DNA from: Emiliania huxleyi CCMP1516
Taxonomy: Eukaryota
Reading direction: 5' to 3'
Assembly (NCBI RefSeq): GCF_000372725.1
Contig: NW_005201392.1
Span: forward strand, 537,660 to 601,659
DNA: 64,000 nucleotides
In this document: piece by piece, positions 5,200 to 9,500 of the stretch
How positions within the stretch are numbered: position 1 is the first letter of the stretch
Layout: each line of letters opens with the position of its first letter
Notes under the pieces: generated by a model
Told to the model about the DNA's origin: nothing
What the model saw: only the letters and a program-made list of their open reading frames with translations
Databases searched by the model: none
Position numbers and translations under genes: made by a program

Positions 5200-6590
5200 C
5201 GGTGAGAGTGCGGTGAAGGCCTGCGCCGCGTCGTCGCTTGGCGCACCCCCGCCGGCGCTGGCGAGCAGCTTGCGGTGCTCAACCGCGCTCACCGTAAAGA
5301 CGGGCAGCTTGAAGGGGGCCTCGTGCCACGCCTCGGGGGGCGGGCGGGCGCCGAGCGAGGCGAGGGGCACGTTCTGCGTGAAGGACTTGGTGAGCTCGCG
5401 CTTGGTGAAGGCGTTGCGCGCGAGTGCGCACTGCAGCGGCGGCGTTGTCTCGTCGAGGCGCAGGTTCTCGACCAGCTCGCTGCGGTTGAAGATGTCGGCC
5501 TGCGAGGCGACGAAGGCCAGCTCGCCCATCGACCCTCGCTGCAGCAGCTCGCGCCGGAGCGGCAGCGGCATCAGGTCCTTGGCCGACTTGTCGTTGCACG
5601 CGCGCCGGATGTTGGACGTGATCAGCACGGTGTGCGCCGACGCGATGATGGAGCGCATCGACAGGGCGCGCGCCTGGTTCTCGTCGTGCGTGCCCGGCAC
5701 ATCGTACAGTCGCAGTCCGGCGCTGAGGAGCGAGAAGGGGGCGAACAGCGTGGCCTGTTCACAGCGGCGGCGTGTGAGGAGGCGCTGCTCACCAGAGGAG
5801 GGGAGGCGAGGGGGCGAGCAGCGTGGGCCCGGTGCACGAGCGGCCACAACGCGCCGCCCTCCGCCTCGTCCGAGGAGTCAACGTATGGCTGGACCAGGCG
5901 CGCAAACTCGGCCTCTGTGGACGCCGAGAGGAGGACGCGACTGCCGAGGCCCTTGTCGGCCGCGCGCTCCATCAGGGAGGCGACGAGGGCCTCCGTCGCG
6001 CCGGGCGCGGCGAGCGCCTCGGCTGTGATGGAGGCGGAGGCGCCGTAGCACGAACTGACGCGGCTCCAGTCCGCAGCGCCGCGGTGCTCGCCCACCTGCA
6101 GAGTCTCGCCACAGATCTGCCGAGATCAGCCGAGATCAGCCGAGATCAGCCGAGGTCAGCCGAGATCGTCAGCTCGCCCACCTGCGGAGTCTTGCCTGGC
6201 CCCGCGGACACGGCGGCGGCGCACGCGGCGAGCAGCGCCTCCCGCCACTCCTCGCGGCTGACGAGGGAAACGCGCGCCTCGTATGGCCCGCTGCAGTCCG
6301 CGTCCGGCCACGCGAGCTCGATCACGGCCGCGGTGCAGGCCCGCATGCACGAGGTCGGCAGGATCGGCGTCGAGCAGCCTTCGGGACGTGTCATGGACGC
6401 GTCACGGTCGGGTCGTGGACATGTGCAGGCAAGGCTCGGCGTCGAGCAGCCGAGGAGCGCGTTGAGGAGGGTCGACTTGCCCGCGCCTGTCCACAGCTGC
6501 AGGTGTGAAGAGACGCCGTCCACAGCGCGTTGAGGAGGGTCGGCTTGCCCGCGCCCGTCCCGCCGCAGACCACAACCTTGAGCGGCTCTG
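5200..6590 (-). other. Dynamin-superfamily (SLIP-GC/NUGGC-like) GTPase domain exons
   Basis: Spliced: [21 protein letters not shown] (G1), [17 protein letters not shown] (G2), [19 protein letters not shown] (G3), [18 protein letters not shown] (divergent G4), VFTVSA. Confidence 0.8.
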
Positions 6591-9500
6591 CGGCGTGGTA
6601 CGGGAGCACCTCCACCCGCCTGGCGGGGTCTGCAGCCGACAGAGCCGCCGATGGCGCGAGCCGAGACCACAGCTCGCCGGCCACCGCCTCGGGGACCTGA
6701 GTCAGGAACCACGATTGTTGATTGAGTAACCGTTCAGACTAGAGCTCGCCGGCCACCGCCTCGGGGACCTGCAGCAGCTGCGACTGCGCGAGCCCCATCC
6801 ACTCCTATGATGATGGTGATGGTGGTGGTGGTGATGACTATCATGAACGACTGCGCGAGCCCCGTCCGCTCCTCGCGGCTCAGCGAGCAGAGGACCGCGC
6901 CGTCGAGCCCCTCGCTGCCGATCGCCGCGCCGTCGACCGAGAGCCGCTCTCCTCCCGCTGCGCCTGCCCACAGGACTGAGGGATGAAGAGACGCCCGCGC
7001 AGCGGACACCTCACCTCGCCCCCGCGCCGCCGTCGCCTCCGAGCTCGCCCTTCGACTGCATCCATCGCACGACCTCCGCGACGTCGACTGCCTTGGGACG
7101 CCACGCGGCCAAACTTGCCCCGCCCGCGGCGGCGGCAGAGGCGGCGGCCGCGGCAGAGGCGGCGGCAGCGGCAGAGGCGGCGGCAGCGGCGTTGGCATCG
7201 GAGGCGCGGCGCTGCAGAGCGAGCCAGAGGCGGCGTACGGCGAGGAAGAGGCTGGGCTGCTCCCTCGCGGGGTGGGGGGAGGCATCGTCGCCGATCAAGA
7301 CCTCGAAACAGTCGGCGTGGCTCATGCTCAGCAGCACGTCCAGGTCGTCCACCTCGCTCTCCACCACCGCCCGCGCCACGCCCGCCCGCCGCCCCGGCTC
7401 GAAGAAGGAGGCCACCCACGCGGCGATCTGCCCGCTCCCCATCAGCACGTCGCCCGCGCCCTCGCCCGCTCCCTCGCCCGCCGCACCGCCCTCGCCCTCC
7501 TCCTCCGCACCGCCGTCGCCGCCCGCCATCTTCGCGTCGCTCGCGGCCGCCGCCTCGCTGTCCTCGGAGGTGGCCGTGTCGAGCGAGCGGGCGGCGGCGG
7601 CAGCCGCCGCCTCGTCGCCCGCGCGCAGGCCATCGCAGAGGCGCGCAAAGCCAGACACGTCGACGGGCGCGTGGCGTGTCCGCTCTTCGACGATCTGGGT
7701 GAGCGCGTCGTCCAGCGCCTGCAGCTCCGCCGCCTTGCGCAGCTCGAGCCCGCGCCTGGCGACGGCGGCCTCGTGGACGCGCCTCAGCTCCGCCTGCTTC
7801 TGGCTGCGTGCCGACTCCTGCGAGCGGCGCGCTGCCGCCTGCTGCTGCTCCTGCCGGCTCCGCGCCTGGATCTGCAGCGGCGCCGGCTCGGGGCTTACGG
7901 CGCGGGACAGCTCTTCCACGCCGGCGGCGAGAAGCCTGCGGAACCACGGCTGCAGCCTCTCCTTGACGCTGAGCCCGTCGTGCATCTCTTGCAGCAGCGA
8001 GGCGAAGCCGTCGGCACCGCCGTACGCCAGGCTGGCGCCGGACGCCGGCATCCCAAGCGGCGCTTGGGCCGCCCCTGGCGGCGGCGGCTTCTTGATCTCG
8101 AGCACGAGGCTCGTCAGCTTGCCGCGCAGGGCTTCGCCGCCCGGCATGGCGCCGAGGAGGCGGCACGTCGTCTTGAGGGCGGAGGCGCGCAGGAGCGGCT
8201 CCGCCCACGCCGCCTCGGCCGCGCCGCTTGCGAAGGAGAGGGGCGCTTGCGCCGTCTCGACGGCGCCGGCAAAGCCGGGGAAGCTGGCGGGGGCGGAGGC
8301 GATGGCGACGAGGCAGCGCTGGGAGGCGGAGGCGTCGAAGGGCAGCGCCTTGGAGCCGCGGCACAGCTTGAGCAGCGCGGGCATGCCGTCGCGGCGCTGC
8401 GTCGCGGGGGCGGAGGGCAGGCCCGGGTAGAGCCCGCCGAGGGCCGAGCCGGCGGCAACCTCCGAGAGCGCCGCGCCGATCGCATCCTGAAGGAGGGTGT
8501 CCGAGTCCGAGAGGGCGACGCGCAGCTCGATGAGGAAAGGCGCCAGCGGCGCGAGGACGACGAAGAGCCTCGGGTTGAGCTTGAGCGTGCCGTCCTGCCT
8601 CGACCACACCGCGGCCGCTGGCAGCGTGGACCCGCCCACGCAAACTGCCATGCGGGTCTCGGCGGGCGGCGGCGCGTCGGCGAGGCGGCGCATCGCCTGC
8701 TGCGGCCGGCCGAGCAGTAGCAGCGCCTCGGCGGACCAGTGAGGGAGCGCGAGGTGGCCGGCGAGGCAGAGCAGCTGGCCGAGGCACTGCTGCGAGCCTT
8801 GCTGGCGGAGGTAGCGGAGGCGAGCATGGCTAGCGGCGCGCGGCTCGTCGAGCACGTCCTGCTCCGTCGCGGTTCCGCCGAGGATGCGGAGGAAGGAGGG
8901 GTGCTTCCACGGCAGGCGCACCTGTGGCCCGATCTCCTCCGCGAGATGCCTCGCCGAGGCGGTCGAGGAGGGGGCGGACTTTCGCGCGGCCTTCGTGGCC
9001 AGGGCCCTGCGCGGCGCAGAGTCGAGGGAGTCGTCGAGACACCCCGAGCAAGCCTCGAGGCATTCGGAGAGCGGCGTGGGCAGCCCCGCGTCCGAGCCGA
9101 AGCTGCCGTCGTACACGCGCGGCTCGCGAGGCAACTCGAGCACCACCTCCCTCCACAAGTCGGCGATCTCCTTCGCCACGGCTCCAAATTCACCCAACTT
9201 GTCTGCGCCCCCGTCCTCCTCGCCGACCTCCTCGATCGCCGCGTTGAGCTGCGAGGTGAGCACGAACAGGCGGAGGGCGGTGCGCAGCGACTCCTTCTCC
9301 TCCTGCTGCTCCTCCTGCTCCTCCTGCTCCTCGTCGTCGTCGTCGCTCATCGGCACTGCGCCCGTCGCAGCCGCCGACTTTCGCGCCGTCGTCTTCGCGA
9401 GCAGACTCGCCGACGGGCCAGACTTGCGAGCCGCGTCGCTGACCGGGCGGTAGAGACCCGACTTGCGCGCCGCCACCTTGGTCCGCGCCGCCGCCGCCGG

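Follow-up and report, generated by a model that had tools for sequence, protein, structure and literature searches.

The 64,000 nucleotides of Emiliania huxleyi CCMP1516 analysed here (contig NW_005201392.1, positions 537,660 to 601,659 of the forward strand, called the window below) carry on the reverse strand a gene for a protein with a SET domain and a dynamin-like GTPase domain, which is interrupted by seven short introns named A to G (Table 1). Six of them start with a copy of 10-33 bases of the next exon, and the origin of these introns is the subject of this work. The SET domain (PF00856, E 1.7e-8) sits in a frame of 1625 codons without introns, and the GTPase domain was assigned through an ortholog (PF00350, E 4.9e-13) and through relatives carrying the name SLIP-GC. 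All seven introns are packed into 1.3 kb of the GTPase domain (5755-7036), while the 4.9 kb of 7037-11912 are without a predicted intron, and after their removal the gene has 2067 open codons. EMIHUDRAFT_448985 (P0001) of Emiliania huxleyi shares 97% identity with the last exon in view. This public model begins after intron B, leaving out the P-loop exons, and likely misses the fusion of SET and GTPase domains.

Table 1. Host gene and introns in the window and at the paralog locus L005. Positions in the window count from its first letter, positions of L005 refer to that locus.
Feature	Position	Strand	Length (nt)	Ends	Remarks
Host gene, part in view	5200..11912	(-)			SET domain, then dynamin-like (SLIP-GC-type) GTPase domain with all seven introns
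Intron A	6964-7036	(-)	73	GC-AG	73-nt skip in RNA contigs X11, X12, X13; ends in shared 3' module
Intron B	6805-6871	(-)	67	GA-AG	Trinucleotide-repeat filler; X11, X12 contig arithmetic consistent with removal
Intron C	6697-6768	(-)	72	GT-AG	In-frame stop; not in RNA contigs
Intron D	6487-6554	(-)	68	GC-AG	X13 joint, X11 record 5; shared 3' module
Intron E	6379-6450	(-)	72	GC-AG	Stop-free and in frame; X13 joint
Intron F	6096-6181	(-)	86	GT-AG	86-nt skip in X11, X13; X12 loose end fits; 10-mer tandem-repeat filler
Intron G	5755-5828	(-)	74	GC-AG	74-nt skip in X11, X12, X13; shared 3' module, internal hairpin
Neighbouring-gene intron	13361-13426	(-)	66	GT-AG	16-nt next-exon copy (2 mismatches); X15 record 22 joins across
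Predicted intron	33714..33783	(-)	70		25-nt copy (3 mismatches), 3' module of D and G; 0/60 nulls; removal opens frame
Predicted intron	58148..58229	(+)	82	GA-AG	23-nt copy (1 mismatch)
Predicted intron	661..735	(+)	75	GT-AG	Decayed 29-nt copy
L005 intron 3, predicted	1219-1282				Perfect 18-nt copy; filler is a C-strand telomeric array
L005 intron 4, predicted					41-nt copy, one mismatch; 18-nt filler
L005 introns 1 and 2, predicted					Intron 2 weak 9-nt copy; intron 1 no copy

The RNA and DNA evidence for these introns consists throughout of assembled contigs rather than raw reads. Three of six RNA runs (X11, X12 and X13) and one DNA run (X7) were aligned to 5680-7115, and X11, X12 and X15 (RNA) as well as X2 (DNA) to 5200-14300, where the alignment at 85% likeness is dominated by repeats. 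Joints in the RNA contigs skip G and A in three studies, F in two, and D together with E as well as C in X13, and the contigs of X11 and X12 are consistent with the removal of B and C. All seven segments are missing from RNA contigs and are covered by the DNA run X7. The spliced model matches X11 record 5 in length and mismatch counts, the four letters of the X13 joint and the loose end in X12. Six of the seven introns hold stops or shift the frame, and their removal restores the alignment to intron-free orthologs. Being present in the DNA, removed in the RNA and bounded by GT-AG, GC-AG or GA-AG, the segments are U2-type spliceosomal introns; the original prediction had called them introns with lengths of 67-86 nt, which the boundaries confirm. 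The case is weaker for C, as the RNA runs may be without it already in the DNA. The predicted segment of A (6964-7030) is corrected by the RNA contigs of three studies. Intron E is about half retained in X11, with a depth of 31.6 for the retained contig and 31.8 for the implied spliced path. Its retention would insert 24 residues right after the P-loop, where the window protein is also two residues longer than its orthologs.

In order to judge the copies, the start of each intron was compared with the next exon in an anchored test, using as null the positions of the same gene with the same starting letters. B (0/132), C (0/70), D, E and G (0/250 each) exceed every null, and F is reached by 2/73 nulls in the forward and 1/250 in the backward direction, being weak in the forward test because its copy straddles the junction with 15 nt upstream and 10 downstream. 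Intron A has no significant copy, as 56/250 nulls reach its score and the donor claimed earlier at 7030 scores no better. Thus the prediction that all seven introns start with a copy of the next exon holds for B to G and fails for A. The five strong repeats were found where they had been predicted: the one of C (6671-6699/6743-6771) is perfect over 29 nt, the one of D (6456-6492/6524-6560) covers 37 nt at 95% and leaves a 31-nt copy of the P-loop codons in the intron, the one of E (6364-6379/6436-6451) gives a copy of 16-19 nt, the one of F (6086-6110/6172-6196) covers 25 nt at 92%, and the one of B (6781-6806/6848-6873, at 92%) includes a 24-nt copy of the next exon with 2 mismatches. The predicted decayed copy of G was also found, with a length of 19-27 nt and, over 19 nt, one mismatch and one indel. 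In D and B it is the intron copy that holds the residue departing from the orthologs (Ser to Pro in the case of D). Together with 13361-13426, an intron of the neighbouring gene that was found via its RNA join and not picked for its repeat, seven of eight RNA-supported introns have a copy, which in six of these seven is at least 16 nt long in the forward direction, with 25 nt in all for F. This supports the proposed long and variable duplication resembling a target-site duplication (TSD).

To place the introns in time we collected relatives. A metagenome scan yielded five loci, among which L001-L003 are ortholog loci, L004 is a conspecific contig and L005 is a paralog locus, and two further proteins, P0002 and P0003, were compared as well. 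An ortholog of 65% identity is free of introns at all seven sites. The ortholog runs in one frame over these sites in L001-L003 (57% over 730 residues), and a Chrysochromulina-like ortholog has a frame of 2495 codons without intron. A protein encoded next to the ortholog in L002 shows 94% identity to a cluster with a Chrysochromulina parva protein, and the genome of L002 has predicted introns adjoining its intron-free ortholog. P0002 (at the six sites B-G) and P0003 (at all seven) align through the junctions, with the two additional residues of the window protein at E, and none of the four predicted introns of L005 lies at one of the sites A-G. A tree of 33 rows groups the window protein with P0003, P0002 and L002 in a 100/100 set to which L005 does not belong; the position of the window protein inside that set has values of 94/86 and is not starred. 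The intron positions are not shared with these relatives. These alignments support a lineage-specific gain of the seven introns, and seven gains on one branch would be simpler than repeated loss.

Intron C seems to be subject to turnover within the species. L004 differs by 12 substitutions over ~2 kb and contains every one of the seven introns except C, whose 72 nt are missing exactly. In X7 the contigs are interrupted at 6670-6699 and 6743-6772, which words of 31 letters would bring about if the reads contained the intron-free junction, and two depth bins of X7 each leave an unlisted record of depth ~15 there, compared to 19.6 on the intron path. From break points and depth sums X7 thus appears to hold both alleles of C, which would be either a young gain still segregating or an exact loss between its perfect repeats. 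Presence/absence variation within the species is thus indicated for C, through one contig and one inferred allele. Of the proposed recent or ongoing gain, recent turnover is supported and ongoing gain is likely, the exact loss of C being the other possibility.

Introns of the same layout were predicted elsewhere in the window from the sequence (661..735, 33714..33783 and 58148..58229). A window-wide copy scan, in which ankyrin and alanine-rich repeats are prone to give hits, was made without 3250-4400, 39800-40100, 42800-43100 and low-complexity starts and was positive at 23/782 anchors with 0.2 expected from a null that ignores local repeats, and at 1/58 anchors in an intron-free exon. This suggests more such introns in the window. 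The 23 hits themselves were not counted as introns, several being opposite-strand shadows or a tandem array, and a repeat at 1601/1673 was set aside as it copies an intron end and not an exon start.

The copy is also strong in two and weak in one of the four predicted introns of L005. Introns 1 and 2 of this locus have a common end that is different from the one recurring in the window, and the telomeric filler at 1219-1282 contains a branch-point-like motif in each unit. L002 had been intended as negative control (3/322 anchors) and is itself predicted to hold introns of this kind: three introns whose removal restores one frame have copies of 10, 12 and 19 nt (reached by 3/100, 1/100 and 0/100 nulls), and two of these three end in tandem-repeat filler unlike the fillers in the window. 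Further picks in L002 made with the 3' module described below (15785, 19014 and 22101) have no good copy. This Chrysochromulina-like genome also carries in L002 a head-to-head pair of diverged genes for dynamin-like GTPases (2411-5497 and 5360-12847), both single long frames, the longer one with an FHA domain. The insertion after a G that the original prediction proposed is not a rule, since 13361-13426 follows an A and intron 2 of L005 a C.

Between copy and exon all cases have 18-66 nt of foreign sequence as filler, and this filler is often not random. A, D and G show a loose likeness limited to their last 33-38 nt, and two other sites share this 3' module. Its core has 8 matches in the window compared to 0.67 by chance; five of the eight close with module plus AG, three of those five with a significant copy. 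The inserts might have a constant 3' end and variable 5' truncation, the matches being few and much diverged at their 5' side. A filler ending in AG is the usual case, as predicted, with the exception of F where the AG is within the duplicated piece. The fillers of D and F fall on very high depth in X7 (39181 and 43896 vs ~31), which is summed depth as for all fillers and repeats given here and not copy number. In G the exon copy pairs with the start of the filler (fold z -4.3), and the two seem to have diverged jointly from exon and module, a hint of either snap-back synthesis or compensatory change. Terminal pairing or inverted repeats were not found, as six of the seven introns fold no better than shuffles and the hairpin of G is internal; a conserved intron fold was rejected by the same comparison. 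The final 50 nt of E, and likewise those of intron 2 of L005, contained no branch-point-like motif. Searches for more DNA with the module gave 0, 1 chance and 0 hits in viral contigs and 0 and 5 hits, none informative, in prokaryote genomes. An archaeal genome-bin contig (L008, 1-150) ends in a piece like the intron-end motif of L005 and is possibly chimeric.

The question whether the acceptor was brought in with the filler was addressed by the polarity of the copies. In four of the seven copy-bearing RNA-supported introns the exon end is without AG, compared to 7% expected for random filler (p 9e-4), and in six of the seven the copy begins at most 6 nt upstream of the junction, compared to 33% expected (p 0.007). 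By chance alone, a staggered duplication placed at random in this gene would contain AG and donor together 12.5 times as often as the AG would come from the end of a random filler. The test favours a borrowed acceptor, which we take as suggestive only.

From the removal in RNA, the copies, the absence in relatives and the one module family, all of which were observed, we infer the direction of change, the geometry of the break, the template and the enzyme as follows. We lean, by a little, towards spliceosomal introns being gained singly here, with a piece carrying a ready-made 3' splice site inserted at a staggered break whose repair duplicates 10-40 bases. A short piece of this kind would enter at nicks staggered by 10-40 nt, and repair would duplicate the coding bases between them, so that the left copy becomes the donor; as GT, GC or GA would do, many sites would qualify. 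The branch region and in most cases also the AG would come with the insert, and once spliced the transcript would again encode the original protein. Such inserts appear to be borrowed from the 3' ends of existing introns, with a few families recurring and the 5' side trimmed. As long as the copy is perfect, exact loss by deletion between the repeats would be possible, whereas decay of the copy would lock the intron in. Target-primed reverse transcription is expected to leave a fixed 3' end next to a duplication of variable length, and intron RNA is therefore favoured as template, although we put the odds against DNA-templated repair at about even. Among the features of non-LTR (long terminal repeat) retroposition a TSD of variable length is present, and the 3' junction has neither a poly(A) tail nor one of simple repeats, the inserts ending in AG. 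A bolder version, which we regard as doubtful, is that haptophytes run an undescribed, ongoing intron factory in which the 3' ends of excised introns are copied in reverse into staggered nicks, so that each event would make an intron out of a borrowed acceptor and a target duplication of 10-40 nt. If this were true, acceptor modules would spread themselves, each lineage would have its own filler families, introner screens would overlook them, and many haptophyte introns could be dated from the decay of their copies.

Direct repeats at junctions are a known signature of template switching, and with contigs as evidence the introns might be an artefact of reverse-transcriptase jumps or of assembly collapse between the repeats. 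We give this hardly any credence, as A and G are skipped in three studies with merely 4-5 shared letters, the junctions lie in imperfect repeats at GC/GT/GA-AG, removal of the six introns with stops or frame shifts restores the ortholog alignment, and X7 keeps all seven. The introns could also be old, with 5' ends that were overwritten later by the start of the next exon through conversion or slippage and with loss in the relatives. The intron-free Chrysochromulina-like ortholog could indeed be a retro-copy, and A has the module but no copy; such a history would nevertheless require loss at all seven sites in the lineage of L002 and P0002, in P0003 and in L005, which retains four introns of its own, and a conversion starting at the donor every time, for which there is no known reason, so that we consider it improbable. 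A transposon-derived intron family, i.e. introners, would account for the module recurring in the window, and a donor from the TSD with an acceptor from the element and GA, GC or GT donors is the layout of classes 4-5 in Symbiodinium and Polarella (10.1101/2020.10.14.339549). It is very unlikely to apply, however, given that the likeness is loose and covers only the last 33-38 nt, that several fillers are unrelated, that the duplications measure 10-41 nt instead of a fixed 3-8 and that terminal pairing is not above chance.

Weightier, if still the less probable account, is generic repair of staggered double-strand breaks by end joining, with DNA-templated filler from abundant repeats or telomerase and with selection alone keeping the spliceable events, i.e. 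the route known from Daphnia with longer overhangs and without any tie to intron RNA. The AG/GT within the duplicated piece of F, the high-depth repeats in the fillers of D and F and the telomeric filler of L005 intron 3 agree with it, as does the filler of G, which is partly complementary to its own copy as snap-back synthesis would yield. The half-retained E is in frame, as a selection filter predicts. With random ends, events with AG inside the duplication would be expected in the ratio given above anywhere in the copy, but the reverse was observed; moreover, the common modules end at the same AG-bearing motif, and the intron-exon repeats of Daphnia are only 4-12 bp long (PMC4202315). Several points weigh in turn against the insertion of borrowed intron ends. 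The fillers of B, C and E have no match in any other of the introns A to G, in F both splice sites derive from the duplicated sequence, and A and a module intron ending at 60585 have no copy. No source intron, reverse transcriptase or insertion out of genes was identified in the data, which comprise the window and a few contigs and no whole genome, and neither selection for good branch points and acceptors nor later substitutions are taken into account by the polarity test. As for the gain, DNA was compared only for L001-L003 and L005, and that P0003 is without introns is an assumption based on one called protein. X11 and X13 are compatible with two alleles of the L004 type, so that C may be missing there from the genome instead of being spliced out, and L004 itself might have arisen by collapse of the 29-nt repeat during assembly. 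The second allele in X7 is deduced from break points and depth sums, one joint at the repeats was dropped in the alignment as probably false, and a depth of 16.3 in the next contig is unexplained.

Among the closest published systems are the intron gains at staggered breaks in Daphnia pulex, with new polymorphic introns and short intron-exon repeats in 33 cases (PMC4202315; review PMC3443670). Polymorphic introns, the direct repeat between intron end and exon and the inserted filler are alike, and here the introns are likewise absent in relatives and polymorphic within the species, the latter for C as described above. In contrast, the repeats here reach 10-41 nt, start nearly always from the donor, occur in most introns of a gene and come with acceptor-bearing filler families. 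The introner-like elements of dinoflagellates (Symbiodinium and Polarella, classes 4-6; 10.1101/2020.10.14.339549) share the donor from the TSD, the acceptor from the insert and GT, GC and GA donors, but have fixed TSDs of 3-8 nt (4-8 nt in those with this splice-site layout) and families alike over their whole length instead of long variable copies with a loose 3' part only; neither this whole-length likeness, nor a fixed TSD, nor terminal inverted repeats were found in the introns examined. The introners of Chrysochromulina sp. (10.1101/2022.06.06.494994) are from the same algal group and were also gained with a TSD; it is 4 bp long, and the element brings the 5' site and co-opts a 3' site, which is the opposite polarity. 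As the screen used in that work takes similarity over part of the length as a sign against introners, the introns described here would likely be overlooked by it. Tandem genomic duplication of AGGT (PMC3443670) resembles F, where both splice sites come from the duplicated AG/GT, but foreign filler is always present here and D, E, G and 13361-13426 have no AG at the duplicated exon junction. Retrohoming of linear group II intron RNA (PMC3280974) offers a precedent for an RNA-templated insert, as the 3' end goes first, the copy is truncated at the 5' side and the 5' junction is end-joined; this is an engineered system in fly embryos, and in the model proposed for it the overhang is lost instead of duplicated. 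Reverse splicing of spliceosomal introns into DNA has been proposed (PMC10996645) but is not known to occur.

A literature search, covering passages of papers and neither supplements nor Read et al. 2013 nor PMC4028052 (Feldmesser et al. 2014), returned no account of this pattern in haptophytes, whose intron gain and loss one genome paper names an open question (PMC8379373). It has long been asked how spliceosomal introns arise anew where no transposon is involved, and in most young introns the traces of their origin are lost. Most of the introns examined here bear a long and readable scar of their birth; they come from two haptophytes that are distant from each other and for which public genomes and population data exist. 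The copy is a built-in clock and preserves the exact sequence before insertion, so that the geometry of the break, the source of the filler and the rates at which introns are gained and lost can be tested computationally, and it might explain GC and GA donors, repeat-filled introns and faulty gene models in these algae. The formation of introns in them, through insertion of a borrowed intron end at a DNA break, is likely to be still going on.

Further repeats lie in other regions of the window. Between the host gene and its neighbour, 12700-13100 is an abundant repeat with a summed DNA depth of 62217 in X2 and many variant contigs. Ankyrin-like coding repeats of 99 nt occupy 3300-3720, where the frame seems to shift near 3610-3620. 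A tandem coding repeat of 84 nt occurs twice in opposite orientations, at 39875-40037 and 42890-43052, flanking two assembly gaps, and this segment is possibly duplicated or mis-assembled.

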